NCBI GenBank assembly: GCA_963677495.2
Contig: CAXXOU010000001.1
Coordinates: 288,001 to 352,000, forward strand
Direction of reading: 5' to 3'
DNA length: 64,000 nt
Source of the DNA: Candidatus Cloacimonadales bacterium
GTDB lineage: Bacteria; Cloacimonadota; Cloacimonadia; Cloacimonadales; JAFGVF01
Part shown: positions 29,857 through 64,000 of the stretch, piece after piece
Layout of the letters: every line of letters starts with the position of its first letter
Position numbering within the stretch: the stretch's first letter is position 1
Translations under genes and position numbers: made by a program
The notes under the pieces: model-generated
The model's database searches: none
What the model was told of the DNA's origin: nothing
Seen by the model: the letters and a program-made list of their open reading frames with translations, nothing else

Positions 29857-29994
29857 TCTTTCAGCAGTAATTAGTGATATAAAACTGGTTTTATCCTGGG
29901 GATAGGTGGGTTAAATCTTGGTAATTAGGCCAAGAATAGGCCAAGTGTTTGCCAAGGGTTTACCAAGTGTCTACCAAGAATTACTGCTGAAAGA
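29857..29994 (+). repeat. 11-nt-periodic rod inverted repeat, subtype B (CCAAG core)
   Basis: TIR tctttcagcagtaatt/aattactgctgaaaga; ccaag at 29930, 29941, 29952, 29963 and 29974. Confidence 0.85.
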
Positions 29995-44100: not shown

Positions 44101-44244
44101 TGGCATTTTCATTTTTTGCTCTCTTACAATAGTTTTTCATCTCTTCCGAATAGCTTGCGAATCACATGTCCAATTCTTGGGCATATCCCCAAGTGTTCCG
44201 CAGGAATTGTAATAGAGAAAATAAGGAATAATAATGGAAAAATT

Positions 44245-44580
44245 AAGCTCTGAAAGAGCGATTGTTCAATAGCCCCATGCGACTTGTCGCTTGGGGTAAA
44301 AGTTCACGCTCAAGATTAGCCCTGAAGGGGCGTCAGATCACCAAACATGTTAATCTTACGCCCCTTTAGGGCTACATCTTTTTAGATTACGTTTACCACA
44401 TGCCAAAGCATGTGGCTATTGAACAGACGCCTTCTCAAGGCTAAAACAAGCTGAAGGAGTTTTGTGCAATTGAGGGCACTGGCACTACGTTTTAGCCCTA
44501 TATGGGCTAAATATGAATAGCCCCAGGTTTTATAACCCGGAGTCATGTTCCCTAAAGATTTCAAGCCCAAGGATGGCTAT
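44245..44580. repeat. Two decayed composite REP-like elements (gccctgaagggc / aatagcccc...gggg type)
   Basis: gctctgaaagagc, aatagccccatgcgac-tt-gtcgcttgggg, agccctgaaggggcg...cgcccctttagggct, gccctatatgggc, aatagccccaggtt...aacccgg. I recall this repeat type next to IS200/IS605 (Y1 HUH) transposases; none is in the window. Confidence 0.6.
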
Positions 44581-44824: not shown

Positions 44825-45025
44825 TGTTTCGTTCTCGCGATACGCTATCGCTACAACGCATGTCCGAAGGTTTTCAACCATTCCATAGGAACAGGTGTTG
44901 AGACAAGACATCGCTTTGCGTCGAAGTACGCATTTCCCCAAACTCCTTATCAGTCGTACAGGTGACAGCTTCAGATGACTTCGAGTTGAACCATTCGGAA
45001 GGTCTTCGACCATTACGAAGGTTTA
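44825..45025. repeat. Further decayed REP-like hairpins
   Basis: tccgaaggttttcaaccattcc and aaccattcggaaggtc-ttc-gaccattacgaaggtt share the type seen at 43950-44100; gcgatacgctatcgc is a further short palindrome. Confidence 0.45.
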
Positions 45026-45055
45026 GAGTAGCGTAGCACGATTCACTCACATCAC

Positions 45056-45089
45056 CCCCCGCTATAGAAGGGAGAAACTATAGCGGGGG
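45056..45089 (-). terminator. GC-rich hairpin after the PHP-GT gene
   Basis: cccccgctatag-N10-ctatagcggggg; lacks a clear U-tract. Confidence 0.55.
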
Positions 45090-45112
45090 AGAACTAATCT
45101 ATTAGAGCCTAC

Positions 45113-47479: not shown

Positions 47480-47724
47480 TTTTTCTCTCCTCTTTCATGC
47501 ATTTTACTTATTATTTACACAAATTATGTTAATATAGCATAAGAAAATGGTTAACTGTTTGTTATGATTGCAATTAATATTATTTTAAGGCTATTGGACA
47601 TGTTTGAGCCGGAATCTAACCTTGAATAGGTTAACTCATTGAAAATTGTTTAAATATGCAAAAAATAATATTCTTGACAAGTTTAGAGATATAATGTCAA
47701 ATTTGCATATAGAAGGAGGATTCA

Positions 47725-50334
47725 ATGAAGAGACTACTAATAATGATGTTTTGTATGATACCATTTTTAATATTTTCTACAACTAGAACTGTAAATTGTG
47801 ATGGATCAGCTAATTATATTTCTATCCAATCAGCAATTGATGCAGCTATTAGTGGAGATATTATTCTTATAGAAGAGGGAATCTATTATGAGGATGTGCT
47901 TGTATCAGATAAATCACTAACTATCACCAGTTTGTTTTATAATGATGCCAATGAATCCCATATAGGAAATACTATCCTTGATGGTGAGAATCAACACCAA
48001 CTACTTACCATAAGCATGCAGAATTATTCTCATTCTGTTGAAGTTATAGGTTTAACTTTGCGAAATGCAAATGGACTACAGGATGCAAGTAGCATTTTGT
48101 CAGGTGGAGCCATCAGTGCAAAACAGACGAATTTAACAATTAGTCACTGTAGCATATATAATAATATAGGCAAATATGGTGGTGGTTTATTTATTGCTAG
48201 TTGTGAAACTACGTTTATAGCAAACTCGGTTAGAGACAACAAAGCCGCAATCATGGGAGGAGGTTTATTCCTCCAACAATACCATGATTACTATGACTTG
48301 CCAATTGTGTTTGATGTTAACGATAGGAACAATTTCTACAATAATTACGCTTCCGGTGGCTTAGACCTCTGCATTAGACATACAGACTATAATGTTGCTG
48401 CGTATTGTGATACACTAGGTATTGATGGTTTGGATTTCTATAGCAACATAATAACAGACGGTTCTAACGACATGCATGAGATAGCTTATGTTGTAGCCGG
48501 AGCTGAATATCTTGATAGAGTAAATGCAGATTTGTATGTTTCGTTAGATGGTGACGATAATAATGATGGTTTAACCCCCACATCAGCATTAAGGTCAATA
48601 AGGCATGCTGCTGCTGTTATTGCTCCGGATGAATATAATCAAAGAACTATCAACATGCTTCCCGGTGAATATACCCTAACTGACGATGAGATGATGTTCC
48701 CGTTTTCGCTTAGAGATAATACCATTCTATCGGGAGCTGGTCCGGAGTTAACGATTCTTAATTGTGAAGACATGAGAGGACATATTGTTAGCAGAAACGG
48801 AATCAGTAATGTTGAAATACGCAATTTAGCTATGGTAAATCATAGAATCTCAGAAGAGGGTAGAATTGGGTTCCCTTTTGCTATTGATTTTAAACCTTTA
48901 GATGACACCGGTTATGAAATTCAATCTAACAGCTTGTTGATAGATAATGTACATTTTATCCAAACGAACTACCATGACCCACATCAGATGAATGAATTCG
49001 TTTCTTTCGGGAGCAGTTCAGTTTCAATAACTAATTGTCAGTTTGGTTCCTATGATGTAGATAGTGAGATAACGTTGAGTTCGATAAGGGGTTCAGGTAT
49101 TCACGATCCGAACGATACCGGCACTATAAGGATTTCAAAGAATAAGTTTATTAATCAAACAGATCAGATAAGAATATCATCCGGAACCGGAGACGTTATA
49201 ATTGATAACTGCTTATTCGACTCAAGGGAAGCTCCTACATTTTTTACTGAAGGTCTTAGATTTTATATATTCATTAATGGTCAGTTCAATACAAGTATTG
49301 TAAACAACTCTATCTGGGGAGACCATTATAATAGTCATGTTTCATCCTGTTTGTGTATCCACGTCGAGAACTCCTATGATGGAAGTGATATTATTGCTAA
49401 TATTGCGAATAATATAGTTGTTGATAACCTCGAAAACAACTTAATAGGTTCAATTCAGTTCGTCGATAATAATTACTATGGCTACAATAACCAGATGTAT
49501 GTTAACAGCAATCTTTTACCCGGTGGAGAATCAATGGCTGGTTCAGCAGTTCATGATGGTCAATACGTATTCTGGGATGGTAACTTAGATGCCGAACCCC
49601 ACTACACCGGATATGGAATAAACGGTTTGATGTTAAATGAAATATCACCTTGTATAGACAGCGGAACATTGAATTTACCAGTCGGATTCGAGCAACCGGC
49701 AACAGACATTGCCGGGAATTCACGTGTATATGGCGAAAACATCGATATGGGTTGCTATGAATGGCAAGGTAATATAGCTGACTTCACTATGCAAGCCATT
49801 GGAAATACTTTCCCAATCGAAATAGAGTTTACTCCTTACTACAACTATCCGATAGATACTATTGCTTGGGATCTTGACCTAGATGGTGTGATAGATAGTT
49901 ATGAGATGAATCCTGTTTGGTCATATCCTGATTTCAATGGACATAATGTCGGGATGTATATCAATGAGGGTGAAGCTATAGAGGTTAAGTATGACTGTAT
50001 TCAACCTACTACACCTATTATTGAAGAAACCAACGATACTCCGGAAGCTAATGAACTTTTAGCTTGCTATCCAAACCCGGTAAGACTCAGTACCGGCAAT
50101 GTAGTTGTTAAATACAATGTGAAAGAGGTTGGGAATGCTGTTCTGAATGTCTTCAATATCAAAGGCCAGCTAGTGAAGTCTATCAGTGCAAGTAATCAAG
50201 CTAAAGGTAGTAACACTTTGTTCTGGTACCTTACAGACAATAGAGGTGTACATGTGCCTTCCGGTATTTATATCTATAATCTTAAGCAAAATGGAGAGAC
50301 AATCGGAAAAGGACAGATTACAGTAGTTAAATAG
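47725..50334 (+). CDS. Secreted parallel beta-helix (pectin-lyase-like, DUF1565-like) protein with PKD-like and FlgD-Ig-like C-terminal domains
   Basis: SIQSAIDAA.SGD, GGGLF repeats, LYVSLDGDDNNDGLT, SPCIDSG...IDMGCYE, WDLDLDG and YPNP...FNIKGQLVK. Confidence 0.8.
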   Translation: MKRLLIMMFCMIPFLIFSTTRTVNCDGSANYISIQSAIDAAISGDIILIEEGIYYEDVLVSDKSLTITSLFYNDANESHIGNTILDGENQHQLLTISMQNYSHSVEVIGLTLRNANGLQDASSILSGGAISAKQTNLTISHCSIYNNIGKYGGGLFIASCETTFIANSVRDNKAAIMGGGLFLQQYHDYYDLPIVFDVNDRNNFYNNYASGGLDLCIRHTDYNVAAYCDTLGIDGLDFYSNIITDGSNDMHEIAYVVAGAEYLDRVNADLYVSLDGDDNNDGLTPTSALRSIRHAAAVIAPDEYNQRTINMLPGEYTLTDDEMMFPFSLRDNTILSGAGPELTILNCEDMRGHIVSRNGISNVEIRNLAMVNHRISEEGRIGFPFAIDFKPLDDTGYEIQSNSLLIDNVHFIQTNYHDPHQMNEFVSFGSSSVSITNCQFGSYDVDSEITLSSIRGSGIHDPNDTGTIRISKNKFINQTDQIRISSGTGDVIIDNCLFDSREAPTFFTEGLRFYIFINGQFNTSIVNNSIWGDHYNSHVSSCLCIHVENSYDGSDIIANIANNIVVDNLENNLIGSIQFVDNNYYGYNNQMYVNSNLLPGGESMAGSAVHDGQYVFWDGNLDAEPHYTGYGINGLMLNEISPCIDSGTLNLPVGFEQPATDIAGNSRVYGENIDMGCYEWQGNIADFTMQAIGNTFPIEIEFTPYYNYPIDTIAWDLDLDGVIDSYEMNPVWSYPDFNGHNVGMYINEGEAIEVKYDCIQPTTPIIEETNDTPEANELLACYPNPVRLSTGNVVVKYNVKEVGNAVLNVFNIKGQLVKSISASNQAKGSNTLFWYLTDNRGVHVPSGIYIYNLKQNGETIGKGQITVVK

Positions 50335-50490
50335 CTTATAGTATATAGCCTATAACTTATACCGGGAACTTAGGTTCTTGGGATGAGGATGAATCTAGCC
50401 GTGTAAACAAAGGTATTTCCTTGTGTTCTCATAACATTGATACACATAGAGAATATGTATTATCGGAATCTGTTTTCACTTTTACATTAA

Positions 50491-50641
50491 GCTTTCACTG
50501 CACCATCATAATACACGGGACTTTCTCGGGATTTTGCAGTGACTTTAGTGGAAATTTCTCGGGTATAGCCCCGAGTGATTCCCGAGGGAGTCCCGCGAGA
50601 TTCCCGTGTAAGTCCCGTGTATTGTGATAGGGTAATGAAGC
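50491..50641 (+). repeat. 11-nt-periodic rod inverted repeat, subtype A
   Basis: TIR gctttcactgcaccatcataatacacggga/tcccgtgtattgtgatagggtaatgaagc; apex ctcggg-tatagc-cccgag; five cccg units at 11-nt spacing. Confidence 0.88.
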
Positions 50642-50850
50642 AGAAATGAGAGTAAAACTATGGAGTGCACCGTCTATGTCGGTGCGTCTTGTCACATAAG
50701 CTCGAACTTTAATCTCCCAACCTAAAAAAGCTATTTCCAGATAAGGAAAGAAGAATACTAACAGTCTTAAATGGACTTCTGTTGAAAGATGAAACAAATG
50801 CTTGACTATTTAAAATTACAACTATGTTATATATATTAAAGGAGCGAATC

Positions 50851-51321
50851 ATGATCCACTTTCTAGTATATTTAAGATATTTTATTGTGTTTGCAACAGT
50901 ATTCATGGGATTTTACTTTCAGACATCAAATCCCACTTTATCATTACGCCTTGTGAGTATGGGACTCGTGGGCTTCACCGGTATCCTTAGTTTTATTAGT
51001 CACGTTCCACTCCACAAAGCTGATTCAAAGAGATTAGGCTGGGAAACAGATCGACCTGATTGGCAGTTTGAAGTTGGTTTCGCAAACCTTGCGTTTGGTG
51101 TACTTGGAATTATTGCTAGTATGAATGCTTTTTGTGACCAATCTAGAAGTGTGATTATCACCGCATACGGAATTTATCTGTTCCAAGCTGCAATATTACA
51201 TCTTGTAAGAGCTTTGCAGTCAAAACCTGTGAATACAAAGAAGCTGATACTTAGTAGTGGGCTTACATTCGTATTTGTTGCATTTATGGCATATTTTGTA
51301 CTTAGTAACCTACAACATTAA
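50851..51321 (+). CDS. Small integral membrane protein (DUF6790-like)
   Basis: GW....WQFEVGFANLAFG motif, several TM segments, ATG 50851 with RBS aaggag. Confidence 0.65.
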   Translation: MIHFLVYLRYFIVFATVFMGFYFQTSNPTLSLRLVSMGLVGFTGILSFISHVPLHKADSKRLGWETDRPDWQFEVGFANLAFGVLGIIASMNAFCDQSRSVIITAYGIYLFQAAILHLVRALQSKPVNTKKLILSSGLTFVFVAFMAYFVLSNLQH

Positions 51322-51335
51322 TATAGGGAGAATAA

Positions 51336-52340
51336 ATGAAACATAGTATATATAAAAAAGGAAAAGAGTTTTTAGGTGTTGATTATCCCATTCTATCAGG
51401 TGGAATGACTTGGATTAGTGACTTTGAACTAGTAAAAGCTGTTAGTGATGCAGGAGCATTCCCTGTTTTTGCAGGTGGAAACATGCCTCCGGATTTATTT
51501 GAAAAAGAGGTTGATAGGCTTATTGATGAGATAAAAAAGCCTTTTGCTATAAACCTAATTACGATTGCTCCAAACTACAGAGCTCATTTCGAAATTCTGC
51601 TTGAGAAGAAGGTAGAGTTCGTTGTCTTTGCGGGTAGTTTCCCAACAAAGAAAGATGTGCAACTCATGAAGCAATCAGGTAAGAAAACAATCTCCTTTGC
51701 CTCTACTGAATCAATTGCTGAAAAGCAGATAAACTGGGGTATTGATGCCCTTATCCTTGAAGGAAGTGAAGCCGGTGGGCATATCGGACATGTATCGCTT
51801 ATAGTCTTATTGCAACAAGTACTCTTCAAGTTCAGAGACTTCCCTATCTTCGTTGCAGGAGGACTTGCAACCGGTGAAATCATGGCACACCTCTTTCTCA
51901 TGGGTGCTTATGGTATCCAGATGGGTACAAGATTTGTGATGAGCGATGAGTGCACAGCACACGAGAAGTTCAAAGTTGCATTCAGAAGAGCGCGTGCCAG
52001 AACAGCAATTGCCACCCCTCAATACGACTCAAAACTCCCCGTGGTTGCAGTAAGAGCTCTTAAAAACAAGGGTATGGAGAACTTCGGGAAGCTTCAGTTA
52101 GAGCTACTCAAGAAATTGGAAGCAGGTGAGATAAACCGTGAAAAAGCACAGTACGAAGTAGAAAACTATTGGGCCGGTTCTCTCCGCAAAGCAGTAGAAG
52201 ATGGTGATGTAGAGAGTGGTTCATTGATGGCTGGACAAAGCGTAGGCTTAATCTCAGACATCAAACCTTTGAAGCAGATTGTAACCGATCTCTTCGATGC
52301 TTGTGATGCGGAGTTGGAGAGGATAAAGAAGCTCATTTAG
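51336..52340 (+). CDS. FabK-like enoyl-ACP reductase II / nitronate monooxygenase family flavoprotein
   Basis: YPILSGGMTWIS, EGSEAGGHIG, AGGLATG, QMGTRF and GSLMAGQSVGL. Confidence 0.88.
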   Translation: MKHSIYKKGKEFLGVDYPILSGGMTWISDFELVKAVSDAGAFPVFAGGNMPPDLFEKEVDRLIDEIKKPFAINLITIAPNYRAHFEILLEKKVEFVVFAGSFPTKKDVQLMKQSGKKTISFASTESIAEKQINWGIDALILEGSEAGGHIGHVSLIVLLQQVLFKFRDFPIFVAGGLATGEIMAHLFLMGAYGIQMGTRFVMSDECTAHEKFKVAFRRARARTAIATPQYDSKLPVVAVRALKNKGMENFGKLQLELLKKLEAGEINREKAQYEVENYWAGSLRKAVEDGDVESGSLMAGQSVGLISDIKPLKQIVTDLFDACDAELERIKKLI

Positions 52341-52440
52341 CTTCTCTGTTAAAGATTGTGAGAGTCAGTTAAGTGTTATTATTCCTTGACTAATAACTTT
52401 CACGCCTACAATTTTGATGTTTATGAATATAGGAGGAAGA

Positions 52441-53262
52441 ATGAAATTCTTTAAATTACTATTGGTATTACTCTTAGCTTTTACAATGCTTGGAGTTGTA
52501 GGTTGTGAAGATGATGATGACCAAACATCTACAGGTCTTTACTTAGTCGATCCTTTCGAGGAAGGTGGAGAAACAATTAATGGTCTTGATTGGGCTGTTA
52601 TTGGAAGTATGGATAACTCTTTCAAAGATAACGATGTCAGCTATATCTATGTTTTACCATTATATGACAGCATTTGGGATGAGCCATATCCATTCTTACA
52701 AGATATCTCTCTTACAATCGGTGGAGAAGAAATTACTCTTGAAATGTTTAGTGATTCCGAGTTTTACAGCATTCCATTATGGGTTGGTGCCGTAACAATG
52801 ACAACAGGTGCTACTTTTACTTATAACTTATCAGTAACTGAAGTTAACGGTACTTCTCACAGTTATAGTGCTAATCTTGCATCAGTTTATCCTACAACAA
52901 CATTTAACTGGCCTGACACAATCGTTCAGGGTGGAGCAGTTGAAGTAAGTTGGACTCTACCACAGAACAACCAGTATCAGCTCGCTAATTGCACATCGTA
53001 TGATTTCTACTATGAGAATGATGATGAATATGAGAAAGAACTTGTTAACAGTATTAGAAGTTATACATTCCCTGCAAACTGTGTTGATGACTTTGGTGTT
53101 GGCACTGAATATGATTATTGTATAGATCAAATCAATCAGACAACAAACGGTAGATTCCTTGTTGTTAGTGGTTATAGCAACTACATGGAGTATTATAAGA
53201 AAGGTGCTCCATCACATATCGAAAGAGTTGAAAGATTCAAAAGAATACTTAACCTTAAGTAA
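52441..53262 (+). CDS. Hypothetical lipoprotein
   Basis: ATG 52441 with RBS aggagg; signal peptide ending VVG-C followed by acidic EDDDD. Confidence 0.8.
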   Translation: MKFFKLLLVLLLAFTMLGVVGCEDDDDQTSTGLYLVDPFEEGGETINGLDWAVIGSMDNSFKDNDVSYIYVLPLYDSIWDEPYPFLQDISLTIGGEEITLEMFSDSEFYSIPLWVGAVTMTTGATFTYNLSVTEVNGTSHSYSANLASVYPTTTFNWPDTIVQGGAVEVSWTLPQNNQYQLANCTSYDFYYENDDEYEKELVNSIRSYTFPANCVDDFGVGTEYDYCIDQINQTTNGRFLVVSGYSNYMEYYKKGAPSHIERVERFKRILNLK

Positions 53263-53278
53263 TTATTACAATTATCTC

Positions 53279-53307
53279 AAGCCTGCTGAGATTTCAGCAG
53301 GCTTTTT
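53279..53307 (+). terminator. Intrinsic terminator
   Basis: aagcctgctga-gatt-tcagcaggcttttt. Confidence 0.88.
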
Positions 53308-53472
53308 CTTTATCTAATATACCATCTGATTACGAGCTACAACTTCTTCAAAGTAGTAACAATCGTAATTATGCTTCAACAAAACAGAGAATCGTGTTGT
53401 AAAAAAAGCATTTAAGACTTGACTAATGAAGATGTTATGAGATAAGCAACTATCTTAATGGGAGACGGGTAA

Positions 53473-54669
53473 ATGAAAAAAGAAAAAGTCATGCTAGAGA
53501 AAATCATGTATTTGGGCAACATGATGACTCAGCTAAAAGATACCGATGTTCTGATGGAGAACATACTGACAGAGGCAAGAAAACTCAGTCATTGTGATGC
53601 AGGATCAATTTACAAATGTGATGGGGATCAATTAATATTCAGTTACACTCAGAATCAAACGCAACAAGATGAACTTCCAATTGGAATTAAGCTAGTCTAT
53701 AGCAGTTTTAAAATGGCAATAGATGAGAATTCAATCGCGGGATATGTCGCAGTTAACAATAAGGTTTTGAATATTGATGATGTTTACGATATTATGGACA
53801 AAGAACCTTACTCCTTTAATCCATCATTCGATCAGAAAACAGGATACCATACTCAATCGATGATTACAATACCAATGCCAACTGCTACAGGGAAAATAAT
53901 CGGAGTGTTACAGCTGATAAATGCATTGGATGAGGAAGGCAATGTAATCCCATTTGATAAAGAGAATATTCCGCTTCTTAAGCACTTTGCAAATACCGCT
54001 GCTGTTGCCCTTGAAAGAGCAGATATGACAAGATCGATTATTCTTAGGATGATAGGTATGGCAGAGCTCAGAGATCCAAAAGAAACAGGAGCTCATGTTA
54101 ATAGGGTTGGAGCATTTTCGGCGGAGATATACGAAGCTTGGGCAATAAAACACAAGGTTTTACCTCGTGAAATTCAGCACTATAAAGATTTGCTCAGAAT
54201 TGCAGCGATGTTACACGATGTGGGTAAAGTTGGTATTGCTGATGCTATTTTGAAGAAACCCGGAAAACTTACTGATGAAGAATATAGTACTATGAAAACA
54301 CACCCAACAATTGGTGCAAATCTTTTTGGAGATCCTCATTCTGAGCTTGATCAGATGTCACGTGATATTGCTTTATGCCATCATGAACGTTGGGATGGAC
54401 GTGGATATCCGGGAGTTTGGAATGAAATTGAAAAGAAAAATAACGAGCTTACAGGTGAAGAGATTCCTCTTTGGGCTAGAATAGTAGCACTTGCTGATGT
54501 GTTTGATGCATTATCAAGTAGAAGAAGTTACAAGGAAGCCTGGGGACCGGAAGAAGTGTATGCAGAATTGCAACGCTCTGCCGGAACGCAGTTTGATCCT
54601 GAATTAGTTGATATCTTTATGTCTATAAAAGAAAACTTGCAGGAGATTAGGAAGAAATATCCGGATTAG
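53473..54669 (+). CDS. GAF + HD-GYP cyclic di-nucleotide phosphodiesterase
   Basis: GAF (SIAGYVA, FDQKTGYHTQSM, GVLQLIN); ETGAHVNRV, LHDVGKVGI, HHERWDGRGYP and ADVFDAL. Confidence 0.93.
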   Translation: MKKEKVMLEKIMYLGNMMTQLKDTDVLMENILTEARKLSHCDAGSIYKCDGDQLIFSYTQNQTQQDELPIGIKLVYSSFKMAIDENSIAGYVAVNNKVLNIDDVYDIMDKEPYSFNPSFDQKTGYHTQSMITIPMPTATGKIIGVLQLINALDEEGNVIPFDKENIPLLKHFANTAAVALERADMTRSIILRMIGMAELRDPKETGAHVNRVGAFSAEIYEAWAIKHKVLPREIQHYKDLLRIAAMLHDVGKVGIADAILKKPGKLTDEEYSTMKTHPTIGANLFGDPHSELDQMSRDIALCHHERWDGRGYPGVWNEIEKKNNELTGEEIPLWARIVALADVFDALSSRRSYKEAWGPEEVYAELQRSAGTQFDPELVDIFMSIKENLQEIRKKYPD

Positions 54670-54813
54670 GAGATTTCCAGATATATATTTCCTTAGGAAT
54701 TTTTTTCATTGACAACTACATAAGATATTCCCATATTTACAGATGATATTGTTTAAGATAAATGATTTTAATGCTTATTCCATCTGCATTTACAAGCTGT
54801 AAAGGGAGTAGTT

Positions 54814-56331
54814 ATGAAAAAACTTGTTGTTATCCTTGCTCTAATATCTTGTTGGACATTCCTAATAGGGTTCGAAACTATTTGTAAAAATTATACAAAT
54901 TCACATGAGCTAACGATACCACAATTATATGTTTCTGTAACTGGTGATGTTCCAAGTGACTCAATAGGAGTATTAAAGCTATATTTTACATCGTTGAACT
55001 GGGATAATCCAAATTTTCATTTCTATTCTGACTCTTTAACAACATTCTCCATAAATGAGGTTGAAGAGGGTTTCTACCAACTTCACTGTATTGCCTGGGA
55101 TCAAAATGGCAATCAATTTAAGGCGGGAGTTTATGGAGATTCGATTATTCCAACTGCAGTGGAAGTAAATGATGAGCTGATTGGCCAAACTTTGGGCATT
55201 AACTTAAACCAAGATTATTGGGAAAATACGAATGTAGTAGGACATCCCGTAACTAGTGGGTCAATAGTAACATACCCATATGTAAACATTTGCCAGGGGA
55301 AACCTTATCCTAGCTATTCACATTATTATGTCGAAAATGATTTTTTGTGCATAGAAAAAAAAGTAAGTTGGGATAACTCATCCAACTCATTTCTAGAGAT
55401 TGAATACAATTCTGGGGCAAATCAACTACTTAAAATAAATAACTTAAGTATAAATGATACATGGGAAAGTATTCGCGTAGTAGGAGATAGTACGACTCCA
55501 ACCTATTGGCATGCTGAGGTAGTATTTAGTGAAACACAACAGTTTAATGGAGAAGAGTTTCAAGTATATGTAGTTGAGACAATAGACCCAATAAACACAA
55601 GAACTTGCTACATATATATGGCTGAAAATATTGGGATATTAATGACACTTATCTATAACAACTATAGCCTGTATGCTGGTTCGATACTAGGTGATTATCA
55701 AGTTGAGGGAGACGATACGTTTTTTCCAATCTCTACACAAAACTATTGGTCAAGATTACCCATTTGTTCCCAAGAAACACCATGGAATTTAAGGCTTGAT
55801 AACCAATCCGTTCTTCGTTGGGAAGGTCCAGTTTATAACAATATTGATTATGATGGATATAGGATTTATGCTGGGGGTGATGTGATTGATGAAATTGATT
55901 TTCAATACCGTAGTTATTCTCTTCCTTTGGATGAAAATCGAACACAATATTCTGTCTCTGTATCTGCATATAATGATGAAGTAGAGAGTGGTCATAGTAA
56001 CTCTATTGAAGTCTCAATGACAGCTAATGAGAATTCTTCGATAAATATTCCCAAGTCATCTCTTCACAATTGTTATCCAAATCCATTCAATCCGGTCACC
56101 AACATTTCATTCAATATCGCTGAGTCATCGACACACACATCTATCATCGTATATAATGTTAAAGGACAGAAAGTAAAGGAACTATGTGATTCAGTACTCA
56201 AAAGAGGAGAGCATAAAATCCAATGGAATGGTCTTGATGATGATAAAAGAGAGGTTTCATCGGGTGTATACATCCTAAGGATGCAGACAGGAGTTGATTC
56301 AGACACACAGAAGTTGATACTTCTTAAATGA
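54814..56331 (+). CDS. Secreted hypothetical protein with FN3-like and FlgD-Ig/T9SS-like C-terminal domains
   Basis: Signal peptide; CYPNPFNPVT...YNVKGQKVK...WNG...SSGVY...KLILLK. Confidence 0.8.
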   Translation: MKKLVVILALISCWTFLIGFETICKNYTNSHELTIPQLYVSVTGDVPSDSIGVLKLYFTSLNWDNPNFHFYSDSLTTFSINEVEEGFYQLHCIAWDQNGNQFKAGVYGDSIIPTAVEVNDELIGQTLGINLNQDYWENTNVVGHPVTSGSIVTYPYVNICQGKPYPSYSHYYVENDFLCIEKKVSWDNSSNSFLEIEYNSGANQLLKINNLSINDTWESIRVVGDSTTPTYWHAEVVFSETQQFNGEEFQVYVVETIDPINTRTCYIYMAENIGILMTLIYNNYSLYAGSILGDYQVEGDDTFFPISTQNYWSRLPICSQETPWNLRLDNQSVLRWEGPVYNNIDYDGYRIYAGGDVIDEIDFQYRSYSLPLDENRTQYSVSVSAYNDEVESGHSNSIEVSMTANENSSINIPKSSLHNCYPNPFNPVTNISFNIAESSTHTSIIVYNVKGQKVKELCDSVLKRGEHKIQWNGLDDDKREVSSGVYILRMQTGVDSDTQKLILLK

Positions 56332-56524
56332 ATTCAACAGTTTTAGTTGTTAAGCTCGACTTCAAGATTGGCTATGCATCTGCTTATTAGTCCCTCTTGT
56401 TCACTAATAATGAGCATATTATTTTTTATGATGAAGGATAAATTAATAGCAAATATACATAAAAATGAATATCTTTTTGTTTCTCTATTGACACCTTTCG
56501 GAAGCACAAAAAACTACCTGTAAT

Positions 56525-57535
56525 ATGAAAACGAAAATAATTGCAACTATTAGCAAAGTAAATGGTAGTATAGATCTATTAGCTGACATGATAAAGGCAG
56601 GAGCAGATATCTTTAGGATTAACATGTCCCATGCTTCTCATGAGGATGTTTTAGAACTAATTGAAAGAATCAGATTAGCTGAAGAAAAATGTAGCAAACC
56701 TGTTGAAATCATGGTCGACCTTGCAGGTCCTGAACTAAGACTACTTTCTATTGAAACACCTGTAACATGTAATCAGAGTACTATGCTTGAACTTCATAAA
56801 ACCAAAAGTCTATCTATTCCTGAAGTCTTTAACAAACTGTCAATTAATGACAGGATGCTCTTGCAGGATGGGAAGTTTGAAGGTTCTGTAGTTTCAATAA
56901 CAAAAGAAACAGCAGTGATAGAAGTTAATGGAAACGGTACAATTCTACCCAATGCCCATATCTCATTCCCTGAAATTGAGTATGGGGATCTCGAAATCAC
57001 AGAGAAAGATAAAACTGACTTAATATTTGCTGATAAAGTTAATGCTGATTATCTTGCACTATCTTTTATCCACTCAAAAGCTGATGTTCAGGCTTATAGA
57101 GATTTCTTAAAACTTGCGGATCCTGAATATACAATTAGTTTCTTACCTAAGTTCGAGTCTAGACAATCACTTAAAAACATTGACGAAATTGTTGAAGCAG
57201 GTGATTGCTTTTTCATAGCTCGTGGTGATATGGGAACAGAGAATCCGATGGATTTGATACCATATTATCAAAAGCTGATAACAGCGAAGTGCAGAAAGCA
57301 AAACAAACCGGTATTTGTAGCTACTCAGATGCTTAGTTCTATGGAGGATAATCCTCTTCCAACCAGAGCTGAAGTATCTGATATTGCAAATGCAGTTATT
57401 GATGGTGTTACAGCTTTAACACTATCTGGTGAGACAGCTATTGGTAAATATCCGGTAGAGTCAGTGAAACAGATGAGACTGATTACAGATTCGGCTGAGA
57501 ATTATAGAGACGAGATAAAAAGATTGGAGAAATAA
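56525..57535 (+). CDS. pyk: Pyruvate kinase, short form lacking the C-terminal domain
   Basis: KTKIIATI, RINMSH, DLAGPELR, ARGDMG, ATQML, PTRAEVSD and LSGETAIGKYP; only 336 aa. Confidence 0.92.
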   Translation: MKTKIIATISKVNGSIDLLADMIKAGADIFRINMSHASHEDVLELIERIRLAEEKCSKPVEIMVDLAGPELRLLSIETPVTCNQSTMLELHKTKSLSIPEVFNKLSINDRMLLQDGKFEGSVVSITKETAVIEVNGNGTILPNAHISFPEIEYGDLEITEKDKTDLIFADKVNADYLALSFIHSKADVQAYRDFLKLADPEYTISFLPKFESRQSLKNIDEIVEAGDCFFIARGDMGTENPMDLIPYYQKLITAKCRKQNKPVFVATQMLSSMEDNPLPTRAEVSDIANAVIDGVTALTLSGETAIGKYPVESVKQMRLITDSAENYRDEIKRLEK

Positions 57536-57846
57536 TGAGTGGATACAATGTAATATGTGATTTAGTAGTAGTTACTTATGATATAGGTCCTAGTTTATCA
57601 CCTTTTGTAGCAAAAGTTTGTAAAGTCATTGAGGAAGACTCAAAAGTTGAACATATGCTCACACCGATGGGTTCAATCATTGAAGGTGATTATGATGATG
57701 TAATGGCTCTTGTAGATAGAGTATTTAAGACAGTAGCACCTGATTATGAGCGTGTAGGGATTACTGTAAAAATGGATTATAGAAAATCCAAAAAGAATAG
57801 AATGCAAGGTAAAGTTGCTTCTGTTTCAGAGAAGATGGGAAAATGA
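57535..57846 (+). CDS. MTH1187/YkoF-family thiamine-binding protein
   Basis: SLSPFVA, LTPMGSIIEG and DYR....RMQGKVASV. Confidence 0.85.
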   Translation: MSGYNVICDLVVVTYDIGPSLSPFVAKVCKVIEEDSKVEHMLTPMGSIIEGDYDDVMALVDRVFKTVAPDYERVGITVKMDYRKSKKNRMQGKVASVSEKMGK

Positions 57847-59132
57847 AAAAGTACTATATAGAATCATTAGGATGTCCTAAGAATCTTGTTGATAGTGAGA
57901 TTTTCGCTTGGTTGACTGAGAAAAATGGTTATGAATTCACAGAAAATCCTATGGAAGCAGAGCTGATTATCGTTAATACATGTGGTTTTATTAGTGATGC
58001 TAAAGAGGAAGCAATTGAAACGATTTTCGAGATGAACGCTCTAAAAACAATTGGTAAATGTAAGAAGCTTATTGCCACAGGTTGTTTAATTGGACGATAT
58101 TTTGAAGACTTAAAAAGTTCGCTACCTGAAGTTGACCATTTAGTTGATTTGAAAGACTTTAAGTCTTTTGCGAAGATACTGGGAGATAACAACCCACAGC
58201 TTGAGAGAAAGATTTTAACTCCTCCCCATTATGCGTTTTTGCGTATCAGCGATGGTTGTGATAATCGATGTACATACTGTGCTATACCAGGAATTAGAGG
58301 TGGGCATGTATCAAGACCAATCGAAGAACTGGTGAAAGAGAGTGAGAAGATTGCAAAGCAAGGAGTTAAAGAGCTTATAGTTACAGCTCAGGATGTTACT
58401 CTTTATGGTCAGGATATCTATGGAGAGAAGAAGCTTCCTGCTTTGTTAATCGAACTGGAGAAGATTGAGGGTCTCAAATGGATAAGACTGCTTTATATGC
58501 ATCCTGCACATGTCACAGAAGAGCTGATTGATATGATTGCCGGTTCTAAGAAAGTACTACCCTATTTCGACATTCCACTACAGCATGCTTCTGACAAGAT
58601 GCTAAAATCAATGAATCGTAAGATTAGCTCACAAGCTCAAGTTAATGTATTAACCATGATTAGAAACAAAATTCCTCATGCTGCAATTAGAACAACATTT
58701 ATTTCAGGCTTCCCAGGTGAGAAACAGAAAGATCACTTAGAGTTACTGGAACTGATTAGAAAGGTAAAATTTGAGCGATTAGGTGTCTTCGTATATTCAC
58801 CTGAAGAGGGTACTCCGGCATCGGACTTCCCTAATAAAGTCACTATTAATACAGCTCAGAAACGCCAGGATGAGATTATGGCTACTCAACAAGCTATCTC
58901 TGAAGAGATAATGGTAACATATGTCGGACAGGAGCTTGAAGCTATTATTGATGCAATGTCAGAAGGAGAAGGGATTCTCTATGACGCAAGAACGATTTAT
59001 GATGCCCCAGATATAGATGGTAATCTGTTTATAGTCAGTGGTTCGGCATCAGTTGGTGACATTGTAAAGGTTAGAATTATTGATAGTTGGGAGTATGATT
59101 TAATTGGAGAAATTGTCTACGATAGAGATTAG
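57843..59132 (+). CDS. rimO: Ribosomal protein S12 methylthiotransferase
   Basis: SLGCPKNLVDSE, NTCGFI, radical-SAM GCDNRCTYCAIP and TRAM-domain DAPDIDG. Confidence 0.96.
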   Translation: MKKYYIESLGCPKNLVDSEIFAWLTEKNGYEFTENPMEAELIIVNTCGFISDAKEEAIETIFEMNALKTIGKCKKLIATGCLIGRYFEDLKSSLPEVDHLVDLKDFKSFAKILGDNNPQLERKILTPPHYAFLRISDGCDNRCTYCAIPGIRGGHVSRPIEELVKESEKIAKQGVKELIVTAQDVTLYGQDIYGEKKLPALLIELEKIEGLKWIRLLYMHPAHVTEELIDMIAGSKKVLPYFDIPLQHASDKMLKSMNRKISSQAQVNVLTMIRNKIPHAAIRTTFISGFPGEKQKDHLELLELIRKVKFERLGVFVYSPEEGTPASDFPNKVTINTAQKRQDEIMATQQAISEEIMVTYVGQELEAIIDAMSEGEGILYDARTIYDAPDIDGNLFIVSGSASVGDIVKVRIIDSWEYDLIGEIVYDRD

Positions 59133-59252
59133 TCTCAGATTATTGTAACTATATTCCGACTAGTCATTAATATTATAACCTTGACTAATAATATTACTAT
59201 TGAAAATTCCGTAAGAATATTAACAAGAATTAAATAAATAAGGAGTAATGTT

Positions 59253-61289
59253 ATGCAGAGAAAGCTTTTGCTTGTAACTCTTCTAACAATAATTTTATCT
59301 GTTGGACTTCTGTGGAGCGTAGCAGATTCAAAACCAAACCCTGACCCCAAAACCGTCTTAGTTGAATTTGATAAGGGCACAATTACTAAAGGTGATTTAG
59401 ACGCTAAGATCGCTAAAATACCACCACAATATCAGAACAGATATAAAACTATTAACGGACAGGAAGAGATTCTTCAAGGAATTATCTTAGAAGATGTTTT
59501 CTACCGTAAAGCTATTGACTTAGGTCTTGATAAAAAGAAAGAGATTGCTGACAAAGTAGATAATGCAACTCGAGAAATCTATATTGAAAGCTATTACAGA
59601 CAAGAAGTACGTGATCAGGTTGCTGCTATTAGCAATAAAGATAAGCAACAATACTATATGTCTCATCTTGATGAATTTTATGAGCAACCTAACACTACAA
59701 TCCTTTACATCCAAGCTGAGGATCAGGAAAGTGCAGAAAAAGCCCTTACTGAGCTTAAATCAGGTAAAGCGTGGGCCGAAGTTTCAAATACATACAATAA
59801 GAATGGTTATGCAAAGAACAACAAGGGTGTAATCAAAGGTATAAGAAACAATGGTCACGTACCGGGTGTAAATAAGAATGAAGCTTTAAGTAAGCTGATC
59901 AATGATGCTCAGGTATCACAGGATAAGATTCATGGTCCGGAAGTAATTGATGGTGTATATCATATTTTTAAAGTAACTGACAGAATTGAAGGATATCAGA
60001 AAACACTTGAAGAAGTTGAACCAACTCTAGAAAAACGTGTTAAGTTCGAAAAAGAAAAGACTCTTACAAAAGCTCTCTTCGATAGACTTGCAACTAAATA
60101 CAATCTTGTTGTTGATGATGAGCTAGCCGGTTCTTTAGATTTAACTACTCCGGTAACTGATAATGAAATTCTTAAGAAAAGCGTTATCTCTTCTGATTAT
60201 GCAAAACTCAATTTGACTGTCGAAAATGTATATGAAGTTCTTGCTGCAATGAGTCCTCAAGAGAAAGCGATGTATATGAAAGCTACCGGAGATGACAGTT
60301 TCTTCAAACGCTACCCTACACAGCTTCTTTATATGGCAGAAGTGGAAGAGAATGGTAAAGAAAACTACGTTGATGAACCAGATAGACTCAGACAGATATC
60401 AAGATACTTTGTTCTTCGTGCTGTTTACAAACAACTTGTTACTGACAAGATTGATGTTACTGATGAAGACCTTCAGAAGTATTATGATGAAAGCATTGAA
60501 CGTTATAAAGTTCCTGGTCACAGATCTATTAGATTATACAAATTTGATGAAGAGAAGAAAGCTAAGAAAGCTTACAAAGCTATTCGCAAAGCTATGAAGA
60601 AAAAGAATCCTCTCAAACAAGAAGCTGCAATCAAAAAAGCATATGAGAAGTATGCAGTTAACACTTTTGAAGATGGTTTCATTGCAAAAGTATATAATAA
60701 CAACATGGTTCTTGGTTATGGTAAAGATGTTGACTTCAACAAATTAGTATTCTCAACTCCTCTTAATGGGACAACTGAACCTTTCAAATCTTCTAATGGA
60801 GACTTACTTGTCTTCACAGTACTTGAAAATGTTGAAGATACATACAGACCTCTTGATGAAGTAAAACAAGCTATAGAAAAAAATGCTAAACAGAATAAAG
60901 AAAAAGCATTTAGAGACGAAGTTAAAGCTGACTTAATGGCTGAATATCAGTATAAAGTTTATGCAGACAGATTAACTGTTAAACTGACTGTTGAAGAGCT
61001 ATTCGAAATGGCTGATAATGCTATCAAGCAAAGAAAATACAATGATTCTGTAATCTATTATGATCAAATCATTAAATCTTTTAAAGATGGTGTTAATGAC
61101 TATAAAGCTATGTTTATGAAAGCATTCACATACTCTGAAAACATTAAAGACAAAGCTAAAGCTATAGAGTGCTATAATGAGTTTTTAGCGAAATATCCAA
61201 CCGGAGAACTTAACGAATCAGCTAAGTTTATGCTTGACCAACTTCAAAATGGTGAAGTGAATATTGATGAGTTGATTGAAAACGAATAG
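59253..61289 (+). CDS. Exported SurA/PrsA-like foldase with two parvulin-like domains and C-terminal TPR
   Basis: Signal peptide; two PpiC-like repeats (GPEVIDGVYHIFKV; EPFKSSNG); TPR-like tail AMFMKAFTYSE...YP. Confidence 0.75.
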   Translation: MQRKLLLVTLLTIILSVGLLWSVADSKPNPDPKTVLVEFDKGTITKGDLDAKIAKIPPQYQNRYKTINGQEEILQGIILEDVFYRKAIDLGLDKKKEIADKVDNATREIYIESYYRQEVRDQVAAISNKDKQQYYMSHLDEFYEQPNTTILYIQAEDQESAEKALTELKSGKAWAEVSNTYNKNGYAKNNKGVIKGIRNNGHVPGVNKNEALSKLINDAQVSQDKIHGPEVIDGVYHIFKVTDRIEGYQKTLEEVEPTLEKRVKFEKEKTLTKALFDRLATKYNLVVDDELAGSLDLTTPVTDNEILKKSVISSDYAKLNLTVENVYEVLAAMSPQEKAMYMKATGDDSFFKRYPTQLLYMAEVEENGKENYVDEPDRLRQISRYFVLRAVYKQLVTDKIDVTDEDLQKYYDESIERYKVPGHRSIRLYKFDEEKKAKKAYKAIRKAMKKKNPLKQEAAIKKAYEKYAVNTFEDGFIAKVYNNNMVLGYGKDVDFNKLVFSTPLNGTTEPFKSSNGDLLVFTVLENVEDTYRPLDEVKQAIEKNAKQNKEKAFRDEVKADLMAEYQYKVYADRLTVKLTVEELFEMADNAIKQRKYNDSVIYYDQIIKSFKDGVNDYKAMFMKAFTYSENIKDKAKAIECYNEFLAKYPTGELNESAKFMLDQLQNGEVNIDELIENE

Positions 61290-61310
61290 CATATACATTT
61301 GATATACTTA

Positions 61311-61340
61311 TAAGCCCGACTCATAGCAGTCGGGCTTTTT
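61311..61340 (+). terminator. Intrinsic terminator
   Basis: aagcccgact-catagc-agtcgggcttttt. Confidence 0.88.
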
Positions 61341-61492
61341 ACTTTTAACTGCAATTTTGAAGGAAATCTTGCTTTCGCTTGTAATAATAATAGATTATCT
61401 GGAAGAGATTATGCTTTACAATTTAGCATAGATTTTAAATTTGCACATAACAAATTGATATAATTTAAATTGAGATATATTGGAGTTACAAA

Positions 61493-63571
61493 ATGAAGAA
61501 ATTATTTTTGCTTACAATGCTGGTTATAGCACTTGCTTCTTTGACTGCTATACCTGCAACACCGAATCCAATTAGTTATCGTCAGCCAGATGGTTCTACT
61601 CTCGAGATGAACCTTCGTGGGGATGAGTTTGTTAATTGGGGAGAAACATTAGATGGATATACAATACTTTCAAACCAAGATGGCTACAAAGTATATGCTG
61701 AGTTAGATGAGAACGGCAACATCTACCCAGGTAATGTGCGTGCTAATAACATTGCTGACAGAACTCCTGAAGAGTTAGATTTCCTTGCGCAGCAAGAAAC
61801 ATATTTGAGCTATAGCAATAGTCAGATTGAAAGACTCATCGGTAGATTCCAAGATAACAATCCAAGTCGTATGGGCGGGTTCCCTACTACCGGTACAAAC
61901 AATATGCTTGTAATCTTAGCAAATTTCCCTGATACTTCACCTACATATACTGTTAACAACTTTGATAACTTAATGAACCAGGCAAACTACAGCGGCTCCG
62001 GTTCATTTAAAGATTTCTATTATGAGAACTCATATGGCCAGCTTACTATCAACTCTACTGTTGTAGGTTGGGTAACATTACCCCATAACAAAAGCTATTA
62101 TGGGCCACAAGAACGCTGGGGCGAGTTTGCTCGTGATGCTGTTGTTGCTGCTAATGATGCTGGGATAGACTTCTCGATTTTTGACAACGATGGCGATGGC
62201 ACTGTTGATGGTGTTGCCTTAGTACACCAAGGTTTAGGTCAAGAAATCTCAGGTAATACAAACGATATATGGTCTCATAACTCTTCAATGTATAGCTATA
62301 ATGTACAGTTTGATGGTGTTGATTTTGGGCCATATACTGCACAACCTGAAAAGAACAATTGGACTAGTATGACAACAATGGGTGTTTTCGCTCATGAAGT
62401 TGGTCACAATTTAGGTACACCTGATTTCTATGACACAGATTACCAAGCTGGTGGTAGTTATACAGGTACTGGTGATTGGGATATTATGGCCGGTGGGAGC
62501 TATAATGGTTATCCTAGCGGTTCTGAGCCACCTCATCACAATCCTTGGACTAAGATTTTTTATGGTTGGACTGATGCAACTCTTATAGATGATGAAGGTG
62601 ACTATACTCTTCCTAACGGTACTTATGATCCAACAATCTATAGAATCAATACACGTACTGAGAATGAGTATTTCTTACTTGAGAACCGCCAACAGACCGG
62701 TTTTAACGGTAGTGTACCATATCATGGTATGCTAATTTTCCATGCTGATGGAAACCATATAGATGCTCATCATAATAGTAATGATATAAATGTTGATTCA
62801 CATCAAGGATTCAGAATCCGTCCTGCATGGGGTGGAGTGAATGGTTCCGGTGCTCCTTTCCCCGGAAGCCACAATGAAACTGAATTCGATGATACAACTA
62901 ATCCTAATGCCTTAAGCTGGGCTGGAGAAGAGACTAACAGACCTATTAGCCAAATTTCAGAATCTGGTGGTATTATTAATTTCCATATGGGCTTTGAGTT
63001 CCCTTCTGAAACTCCACAGTGGTTAGAAGCTAATGTTAATGGCTCAGATGTATCTCTCTCCTGGATTCACCCACAAGTTGTTTCTAATGTACTTGGTTAT
63101 TCTGTTTACAGAGATGGTCAGTTCCTTAACATCATTGCAGACATTGCACAAATCACCTATGTAGATGCTAATGTCCCTGATGGAACTTATGAGTATTATG
63201 TGACTTCACTAACTAACACAGGTGAGTCTGATCCTTCTAACACTGTGACTGTTCAAGTTGGTGCAAACCCGAATAGTGATAATGTACAATTAGCTCAGAC
63301 AGCTCTTCTTGGAAACTATCCTAATCCTTTCAACCCTACTACAACTATCTCTTACTTCATTGATAAATCATCTGATGTTGAGTTAGCTGTTTATAATGTG
63401 AAAGGTGAGAAGATTAGAACACTTGTAGCTGATGATGTTCAAACCGGTCAGCACTCAATTGTATGGAATGGTATGAGTGATAGTGGTAAAGTTCAACCTT
63501 CCGGTATCTATTTCTACAAACTGAAAGCAGGTACTTACACAAAATCTAAGAAGATGATTCTTATAAAGTAA
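61493..63571 (+). CDS. Secreted M6-family (immune inhibitor A-like) metalloprotease with FN3 and FlgD-Ig/T9SS-like tail
   Basis: QPDG...RGDE propeptide, YYENSYG, DNDGDG.VD, HEVGHNLGTPDFYD, WDIMAGGS, EYFLLENRQ and GNYPNPFNPTT. Confidence 0.92.
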   Translation: MKKLFLLTMLVIALASLTAIPATPNPISYRQPDGSTLEMNLRGDEFVNWGETLDGYTILSNQDGYKVYAELDENGNIYPGNVRANNIADRTPEELDFLAQQETYLSYSNSQIERLIGRFQDNNPSRMGGFPTTGTNNMLVILANFPDTSPTYTVNNFDNLMNQANYSGSGSFKDFYYENSYGQLTINSTVVGWVTLPHNKSYYGPQERWGEFARDAVVAANDAGIDFSIFDNDGDGTVDGVALVHQGLGQEISGNTNDIWSHNSSMYSYNVQFDGVDFGPYTAQPEKNNWTSMTTMGVFAHEVGHNLGTPDFYDTDYQAGGSYTGTGDWDIMAGGSYNGYPSGSEPPHHNPWTKIFYGWTDATLIDDEGDYTLPNGTYDPTIYRINTRTENEYFLLENRQQTGFNGSVPYHGMLIFHADGNHIDAHHNSNDINVDSHQGFRIRPAWGGVNGSGAPFPGSHNETEFDDTTNPNALSWAGEETNRPISQISESGGIINFHMGFEFPSETPQWLEANVNGSDVSLSWIHPQVVSNVLGYSVYRDGQFLNIIADIAQITYVDANVPDGTYEYYVTSLTNTGESDPSNTVTVQVGANPNSDNVQLAQTALLGNYPNPFNPTTTISYFIDKSSDVELAVYNVKGEKIRTLVADDVQTGQHSIVWNGMSDSGKVQPSGIYFYKLKAGTYTKSKKMILIK

Positions 63572-63592
63572 AAGTAATTTCAATTATAAATC

Positions 63593-63619
63593 AAAGCCCC
63601 CGATTGCGGGGGCTTTTTT
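63593..63619 (+). terminator. Intrinsic terminator
   Basis: aaagcccccg-attg-cgggggctttttt. Confidence 0.9.
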
Positions 63620-63687
63620 CTATGTAAAGCAACATCGATCCACATAACTTCTTCTGATTCTTCCTAATAATCCAACACTTTTATGCC

Positions 63688-63837
63688 CTCTCATTGCCCT
63701 ATCATAATTCCCGGGACTCTCTCGGGAATCACACGGGAATCTCTCGGGACTCTCTCGGGGCTTTGCCCGAGTAATTCCCAAATAATTCTCTACAGATTCC
63801 CGAATTAATCCCGCGTATTATGATAGAGCAATGAGAG
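63688..63837 (-). repeat. 11-nt-periodic rod inverted repeat, subtype A (opposite orientation)
   Basis: TIR ctctcattgccctatcataat/attatgatagagcaatgagag; units cgggactctct/cgggaatcaca/cgggaatctct/cgggactctct; apex is the reverse complement of the 14507 apex. Confidence 0.9.
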
Positions 63838-63867
63838 TGAGTTTCGAATACTGTGAACTATTAATAT

Positions 63868-63904
63868 AAAAAAACTCCCCGTTCCATTTTGGACTGGGGA
63901 GTTT
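63868..63904 (-). terminator. Intrinsic terminator of the minus-strand gene at the window end
   Basis: aaaaaaactcccc-gttcca-ttt-tggact-ggggagttt. Confidence 0.75.
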
Positions 63905-63923
63905 GTCATTCTTCTATTACTTA

Positions 63924-64000
63924 CTACTTCTGAATTGTAGTATACCCTAAATCTCTTAAACGTTTTAGCTGACCATCATCACCGATGAGATGACCTGCAC
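63924..64000 (-). CDS. 3' end of a TraB/GumN-family protein (partial)
   Basis: Minus strand translates AGHLIGDDGQLKRLRDLGYTTIQK*, matching the GAGHL.G..G....L...GY C-terminal motif. Confidence 0.65.
   Translation of the reverse strand, partial: AGHLIGDDGQLKRLRDLGYTTIQK

Follow-up and report, generated by a model that had tools for sequence, protein, structure and literature searches.

Bacteria are already known to carry small, gene-less, intergenic repeats that fold back on themselves, such as miniature inverted-repeat transposable elements (MITEs) and REPINs. Here we describe a repeat of this kind from a Candidatus Cloacimonadales bacterium, seen as a 150-bp element at positions 63688-63837 of a stretch of 64,000 nucleotides (the window: G000 contig C1:288001-352000, from a genome of 3.41 Mb in 4 contigs with 37% GC) and belonging to a dispersed family that we call A. 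The closest described kinds are REPINs and TIRtrons, and bacterial MITEs. In Bertels & Rainey 2011 (PMC3116915) and Di Nocera et al. 2013 (PMC3733652), REPINs (with RAYT) and TIRtrons (with TIRYT) appear as small, gene-less, extragenic, many-copy repeats whose inverted halves fold as a hairpin, lineage-specific and with several families per genome, for which no target duplication is expected; family A is like them in each respect, and the window's genome also holds Y1 genes with clusters of their own repetitive extragenic palindromes (REPs). Terminal inverted repeats, a length of 100-170 bp, intergenic position, many copies, lack of an open reading frame (ORF) and fold-back potential, which are features of bacterial MITEs (a review is PMC3184786), are likewise all found here. 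Unlike a DDE-derived MITE, however, the element has no target-site duplication and no parent insertion sequence with the same ends. Our comparison set was MITEs of the Correia, ERIC, RUP and bcr1 type, and to our knowledge neither a phased internal word array nor a strict 150-bp length is a feature of those families.

Two further kinds of system resemble parts of the element. Eukaryotic Foldback (FB-type) elements have inverted arms of tandem subrepeats, which are presumed transposase sites; the middle between the arms is short or missing, and most copies are gene-less; they differ in being kilobase-sized, in making target duplications and in having both arms regular, and the likeness is a working analogy in build, not membership. 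Arrays of 11-bp direct repeats are known from the pMV158 RepB 'bind' locus, R1 parC/ParR, PhoB boxes and CarH operators. Such iteron and centromere arrays share with family A the direct repeats at one-turn spacing and, where dimers bind, a 22-bp super-period; an oligomeric protein reads them along one face of the DNA. They occupy a single locus beside the gene of their reader, whereas here 24 dispersed copies with terminal repeats have housekeeping genes as those neighbours that were scanned. A preliminary description of the window had named no family with this geometry, and searches of open-access full text likewise listed neither 11-bp-phased bacterial fold-back repeats nor such elements from Cloacimonadota, which is not proof of absence.

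The element is a real, genus-restricted, dispersed and gene-less fold-back DNA repeat with one phased, strongly conserved arm. It consists of a basal inverted repeat, a regular arm of 3-6 units, a small GC apex palindrome and an opposite arm that keeps mainly GA or GGA every 11 nt. Tentatively, and with somewhat less than even confidence, we take it for a fold-back mobile element that is non-autonomous, or for what remains of such an element, its regular arm being a putative phased protein-binding array. The copy at 63688 is the best A-family match to nhmmer (157 bits on the minus strand vs 86 on the plus strand), and on the plus strand it reads as five CGGGA-type words in 11-nt steps, the apex CTCGGGGCTTTGCCCGAG and a looser complementary arm. 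Its parts and setting are as follows.

63688-63837, minus strand (the family's common orientation): A-family fold-back element, full length 150 bp, placed by profile score and rod fold
63688-63708, no strand: terminal inverted repeat, one end, 0 mismatches to consensus, pairing with 63817-63837
63709-63759, minus strand: regular arm, the conserved 3' arm of the family, with four TCCCG at exact 11-nt spacing and an apex-proximal CCCCG
63753-63770, no strand: apex GC palindrome CTCGGGG CTTT GCCCGAG, read in the sequence, with columns 67-72/79-84 paired in 33-35 of 35 copies
63771-63816, minus strand: degenerate arm, the 5' arm in family orientation, with mainly the GA of the complementary word left every 11 nt
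63817-63837, no strand: terminal inverted repeat, other end, 0 mismatches to consensus
63593-63616, plus strand: terminator-like hairpin behind the M6-peptidase gene that lies upstream

On the minus strand, the TraB/PrgY/GumN-family gene is followed by another hairpin, which has a T run, at ~63870-63910 (by eye), and the element sits in the convergent gap between the two terminator-like hairpins. Three more A or B copies lie in the window.

50492-50641, plus strand: A-family copy, full length, regular arm 50567-50617
14507-14656, plus strand: A-family copy with decayed ends, regular arm 14582-14632
29567-29716, plus strand: B-family copy, with A's terminal repeats and 150-bp length and another interior with a near-invariant AAGAGACT core

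The shared terminal inverted repeat and the 11-nt TCCCG period reported in the preliminary description both stood up to counting. The terminal repeat has 4 window matches at no more than 3 mismatches (0.01 expected), including 29567-29587 and 29696-29716, and TCCCG repeated three times at exactly 11 nt has 5 matches (0.00 expected), all within the copies at 14507, 50492 and 63688. The element contains no ORF, as had been stated. One copy had been placed at 50491 and in fact starts at 50492, and the 29567 copy, taken at first for an A copy with a diverged interior, is instead a member of a separate family of 47 copies, which we call B. End-to-end pairing had been claimed for three copies. It holds for those at 63688 (-75 to -88 kcal/mol) and 50492 (-72 to -79 kcal/mol), which fold as rods with z of -9.9 to -11.8 and are equalled by 0 of 200 shuffles, but not for the 14507 copy, whose degenerate ends are open in the minimum-energy fold and whose z is only -4.4; in the 29567 copy, pairing is mostly that of the ends.

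Searched with a profile of the window's three A copies, the genome yields 24 loci, 17 of full length and 7 shorter, each scoring far better in one orientation, and 68 distinct A copies were collected from four species of one genus. Family B, seeded with the 29567 copy, is nearly always gapless over 150 bp; its right half carries CCC every 11 nt and in our own reading of the alignment resembles the first A unit. The two families have their ends in common, and all terminal-repeat pairs found at no more than 4 mismatches (27/27) measure exactly 150 bp end to end. By BLAST, A has matches in all 4 genomes of the genus (21, 21, 4 and 26), in 0 of 8 genomes of the family's two other genera and in 0 of 29 further genomes of the order, and the range of B is that of A. 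A pattern scan of a species-level genome collection returned 42 loci, 41 of them in two Cloacimonadales/Cloacimonadota records of metagenome-assembled genomes and the last a chance match in a high-GC actinobacterium. In metagenomes a three-unit pattern picked out 13 loci, each an unrelated, simple tandem 11-mer from another organism, and viral contigs, plasmids and phages gave 0 matches.

Conservation differs sharply between the two arms. Gapless rods, with at least 50% Watson-Crick pairs over 72 pairs, are formed by 47 of the 68 copies (21 dropped), and alignment A1 comprises 35 of these: the copies that could be assigned a locus, less six that would have opened gaps. A1 has 36 invariant columns, 32 of them within the apex and 3' arm, and columns 79-126 are mostly invariant; over the 47 copies, in three species, apex and 3' arm are mostly 98-100% conserved. 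In the 5' arm, conservation of 87-98% is limited to the first word and to the GA that recurs every 11 nt in the later words, whereas in the spacer columns the majority base reaches only 34-64%. The regular arm of the preliminary description, opposite a degenerate 5' arm, is a property of all 68 copies aligned. The regular unit is GAKTCCCGNGN, of 11 bp. Copies have ~2 to 6 such units, which change in 11- or 22-nt steps without matching changes in the 5' arm. In the window species the units alternate ATT and AGT before CCCG, giving a 22-bp super-period; one sister species lacks the alternation and has its own 5' arm consensus, TTATGAACAAAATGTGAATAAC, with two middle words gone and a middle that no longer pairs.

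One pair of copies shows the same contrast in place. Both rRNA operons have an A copy 371 bp upstream of 16S (G000 C2:80967-81116 and C4:10207-10356), and the element's 3' end coincides exactly with the end of the duplicated block. Between these copies 0/29 sites differ in positions 1-29, 7/49 in positions 30-78 and 1/72 in positions 79-150 (Fisher p=0.007, positions 30-78 vs 79-150), which suggests, from one copy pair only, in-place conservation of the regular half. Hypermutation of the 5' arm in this pair was considered and rejected, because its flank is an rRNA operon and not a neutral yardstick; targeted mutagenesis of the diversity-generating-retroelement type was rejected as well, the variable positions being spacers that face both G and A and so not base-specific.

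Strand-biased G-U pairing had been put forward as a sign that one single strand folds. The early hand counts are roughly matched by our gapless counts of G-T vs A-C, 7/1 (63688), 8/3 (50492) and 10/5 (14507), and over the 47 copies the interior has 1466 Watson-Crick, 226 G-T and 106 A-C pairs. We then paired each 5' arm with the 3' arm of another copy in place of its own. The swapped arms give 1472±11, 227±4 and 109±4, and with own and swapped counts equal there is therefore no copy-specific complementarity in the interior; the bias is real there as a count, and the excess arises because invariant G's of the 3' arm face a T-rich 5' arm. The 17 interior columns with a varying 3' arm show no copy-specific pairing either (330 vs 338±9.5 Watson-Crick pairs), and the 48 interior pairs of A1 are 71.0% paired vs 71.3±0.5 shuffled (372/500), with covariation of 0.091 vs 0.090.

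The terminal repeats behave differently. Their own arms give 553 Watson-Crick pairs vs 467±14 over 21 pairs and 622 vs 539±14.5 over 24 pairs (the latter reached by 0 of 500 permutations), and the basal 24 pairs of A1 are 68.0% paired vs 61.5±1.0, with 135 double-change cells vs 85±9 (both 0/500); related sequences may exceed such covariation shuffles without any structure. Here the strand bias is absent (G-T 100 vs A-C 98). Because the terminal repeats show this copy-specific compensation, the element may fold back as DNA at its base. With RNA parameters the family strand folds slightly better (-58.9 vs -55.5 kcal/mol; better in 29/47), and with DNA parameters there is no strand preference (-26.0 vs -26.4; 19/47).

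Family A is one of several families built on the same spacing. A census of the window's genome for 5-mers repeated at least four times at a fixed spacing gave 147 loci at 11 bp, 19 at 7 bp, 9 at 14 bp, 1 at 9 bp and 0 at 8, 10, 12 and 13 bp; short words thus recur at essentially no spacing other than 11 bp and 7 bp with its double. The words at 11 bp are CACTG (62), CCAAG (21), CCACG (20), CGGGA (15), CGTTA (9), AGTAA (5) and a few others. CCAAG and AGTAA families are built like A: each is bounded by a terminal inverted repeat of its own and has one loose arm, and its regular arm repeats the word followed by six bases. In the CCACG family, four units face four others in a near-perfect palindrome. 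The window contains one sister-family element, and ~140 bp separate it from the B copy at 29567-29716.

29857-29994, plus strand: CCAAG sister-family element, CCAAG five times at 11 bp, terminal repeat CAGCAGTAATT/AATTACTGCTG, array C1:317930-317978

Across the phylum, 13 of 232 genomes have TCCCG repeated four times at 11 bp, and they belong to 7 of 66 Cloacimonadota genera (reversed control 0). In other genera the spacers of these arrays differ, and several arrays again run on into an apex and a complementary arm that has decayed, at least one of them also into a closing inverted repeat. In the AGTAA family TTATCCACA, which we take to be the DnaA-box consensus, stands just before the array in 5 of 6 copies and TTATCAACA in the sixth (for example C4:238560-238608 and C4:864168-864216).

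ORFs of at least 120 aa make up ~86% of the genome, and all 71 A and B copies lie outside them. No collinear genes are common to the flanks of the 24 A copies and to 66 sister-genome loci around copies, the only matches being paralogous secretion-tail domains and one gene on the element's opposite side; element sites therefore differ between species. In the one complete genome of the genus, homology and synteny are both lost at the terminator that precedes the 63688 copy; genes of the two genomes are only ~70-76% identical, too far apart for an empty-site comparison. Contigs of 4 sequencing runs (one sample and study) have no joint over 45000-64000 that skips either element, and the one joint that touches them, from 50531 to 63710, reflects cross-matching of the copies with each other. 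B placement follows the shares of intergenic space (p=0.85), and there is no rule of orientation to co-directional neighbours (B 13 vs 12, A 4 vs 1); none is apparent either, with strands judged by eye, along the complete genome.

On the reading that we favour, a non-autonomous fold-back mobile element with a phased array, a sequence-specific protein would recognise the regular arm as DNA, with one site in each helical turn. The basal inverted repeat drifts in sequence yet stays self-complementary within each copy. Multiple subterminal transposase sites, as in fold-back and Tn7- or IS21-type ends, and iteron arrays are read site by site in this way. A protein-array scaffold or non-autonomous element had already been suggested for the repeated word at helical-turn spacing, and this idea fits because the 3' arm is near-invariant, the 11-bp phase exact and the sister sites non-orthologous. 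A reader protein on the array, self-driven movement and a role for the paired base in a folded-back form are inferred.

Several observations weigh against this reading. No target-site duplication was found in the 22 copies with good ends (k=2-9, offsets -6 to +6; for k of 3 or more the best count is 2 copies), as the preliminary description had seen for the window. No longer copy with the same ends was found, in that no terminal-repeat pair is wider than 150 bp, and no candidate reader or transposase lies near the copies in the genome or within 1.5 kb at 57 sister loci. Of 620 arrays of at least 3 units, some stand inverted to an array of the same word at a distance of 150-3500 bp, giving 4 pairs at 3 distinct places; ORFs are enclosed by one pair only, where an IS21 copy splits a CACTG element. 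The copies are old (~70-85% identical). A neutral mobile element need not show the skew of A copies in gene orientation (observed vs expected: convergent 9 vs 3.9, divergent 10 vs 7.0, co-directional 5 vs 13.1; p=0.0014 with crude gene calls). The compensation in the terminal repeats may simply follow subfamily descent, and the strong conservation of one arm in resident copies is more in keeping with a use by the host than with selfish spread alone.

Such a host function is the substance of a second explanation, in which the repeats are domesticated architectural or regulatory DNA, binding by a host protein keeps the arrays at their sites, for example at the boundaries of transcription units or upstream of rRNA operons, and the mobile look reflects origin only. 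We regard it as unlikely, although several observations suit it: the near-complete conservation of 3' arm and apex beside 5' spacers near saturation, the lopsided divergence of the rRNA-operon pair and the presence of a copy at the same distance from both rRNA operons, the excess in convergent and divergent intergenic space, and a 150-bp spacing of terminal-repeat pairs that is kept despite 20-30% divergence. Against it, no site is common to the species, which is odd for a site-specific host function, orientation follows no rule relative to genes, no candidate protein emerged and the rRNA-operon evidence is one copy pair.

A third explanation, which we hold to be improbable, is that of a REPIN-like single-stranded DNA hairpin moved by a Y1 HUH transposase of RAYT or TIRYT type. 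Single-strand cut and paste would account for the missing target duplication, the basal stem does show compensation, and gene-less long inverted-repeat families tied to tyrosine transposases are described in PMC3733652 and PMC3116915. The genome has 14 matches to PF01797 (Y1_Tnp), including 180-237-aa proteins with PNHFH and NPVKAG motifs, and 5 of the 14 genes lie within 2.1 kb of an A or B copy, a zone making up 10.7% of the genome (p=0.012). However, the Y1 genes all have REP-type hairpins or clusters of their own on their flanks, and not A or B, and 16 Y1 loci in two sister genomes have 0 A matches and 1 weak B match. No ORF with an HUH motif occurs within 1.5 kb of the copies at 57 sister-genome loci, and a genome of another genus, of 99% completeness, has six TCCCG 11-bp arrays without a PF01797 match. 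The even G-T and A-C counts of the basal stem and the equal folding of the two strands with DNA parameters also speak against a single-strand substrate. REPs are defined in PMC3733652 as short palindromes with a GTAG or CGTC head, arranged as inverted pairs, whereas the A consensus (35 copies) has neither head and starts CnnTnAnTGC; its halves are 11-bp word arrays and not 20-40-bp palindromes, with one arm regular and the other decayed.

The RAYT-like HUH genes themselves (180-237 aa, weak to PF01797; C2:350265-350975, C2:265263-265805, C4:1452019-1452663 and others) are embedded in tandem clusters of their own 120-250-bp hairpin repeats. These RAYT-associated repeat families have members in the window, for example at 44243-44445 and 50659-50709, and one RAYT-like gene has a CACTG array ~110 bp upstream.

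The last and least probable explanation, a structured non-coding RNA forming a ~150-nt rod that shows its motif five times on one face of an A-form helix, was the one first proposed and is very improbable; we reject it as the principal account. An A-form helix makes one turn in 11 nt, the period seen here, and two window copies fold very stably (z -10 to -12), with an interior G-U excess and a family strand favoured by RNA parameters. Yet the periodic arms are without covariation, an outcome that the preliminary description itself had counted against the idea, and arms of other copies reproduce the G-U excess. The middle of the 5' arm is unpaired in one species, units are gained and lost on one arm only, copies lie in both orientations relative to genes, and the two convergent genes beside the 63688 copy each have a terminator hairpin before it. 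Neither a promoter nor a terminator is conserved, and Rfam at its gathering score gives 0 matches for the window and four other loci. A strong rod fold and a G-U excess can, as a caution, arise without RNA function.

Other candidates were set aside more briefly. A sponge for CsrA acting through the GGA words and a use of small guides both fail for want of a user, the genome having no CsrA and no Piwi gene, and an integron attC site does not suit copies that are single, dispersed, in both orientations and among housekeeping genes (intI was not searched for). The only abundant insertion sequence is of IS21 type (2361 bp, ORFs of 510 and 243 aa, 17 copies at 98-100% identity, for example C1:188674-191034), and it was rejected as a parent because its ends are unrelated. 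At 4 of its 17 copies an 11-bp word array lies within 60 bp of an end, a zone that takes in 1.1% of the genome. A cargo version, with phased arms around IVS-type or GxxExxY genes, was also rejected: the genome has 7 PF05635 (IVS-type) matches, 4 at full profile length, and 1 GxxExxY (TIGR04256) match, and their flanks carry other repeats, of ~7-9 nt as judged by eye, not TCCCG or 11-bp arrays. Short repeats of the TAGCCTAT/CAGC and AATGCTAA types, for example, flank the PF05635 genes at C4:488359-489111, C4:777157-777471 and C4:1489815-1490129, and such repeats probably account for part of the genome's 7-bp arrays.

Some copies stand in composite settings. One A copy is cut short beside another element with the same end type: at G000 C2:45605-45875 it ends after its first 3' unit, and ~30 bp past the cut lies another 150-bp element with related ends and a third type of interior. 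Some B copies head a mosaic of ~0.9 kb (for example G000 C1:148960-149907), composed of an inverted array of three ACCACG, the B copy, a module of three TAACGGGRAKC and further modules, which are also found alone elsewhere; at two loci the mosaic lies upstream of a gene for an 800-aa protein with a type IX secretion system (T9SS) tail. The M6 peptidase gene beside the 63688 copy is T9SS-tailed too. All four window copies are flanked by ordinary genes, among them those for an RDD protein, a peroxiredoxin, an ArsP-type permease, GNAT, a flavoprotein, DUF6790 and NMO. A peroxiredoxin gene at 13674-14390 (minus strand) is split into ORFs of 81 and 133 aa by a single in-frame TGA; it reads through as 238 aa, with FTFVU at the catalytic position, if the TGA is selenocysteine, and on this sequence its product is probably a selenoprotein peroxiredoxin.

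What sets these repeats apart from the fold-back repeats already described is an exact 11-bp grammar in one near-invariant arm, opposite an arm that drifts save for the complementary GA in each turn, and a build that is common to several families with different words and ends. We know of no described reader protein for such arrays, nor of a cultured model organism in the phylum. The pattern suggests a dedicated reader, which would be a transposase that has several subterminal sites or else an oligomeric DNA-binding protein of the host. More speculatively, and we think this doubtful, Cloacimonadota may have an undescribed fold-back system that writes a family-specific 5-nt word every 11 bp in one arm, with one reader protein per word, whose copies would be kept by selection as programmable landing pads and would not be junk, for example at strand-switch boundaries and upstream of rRNA operons.

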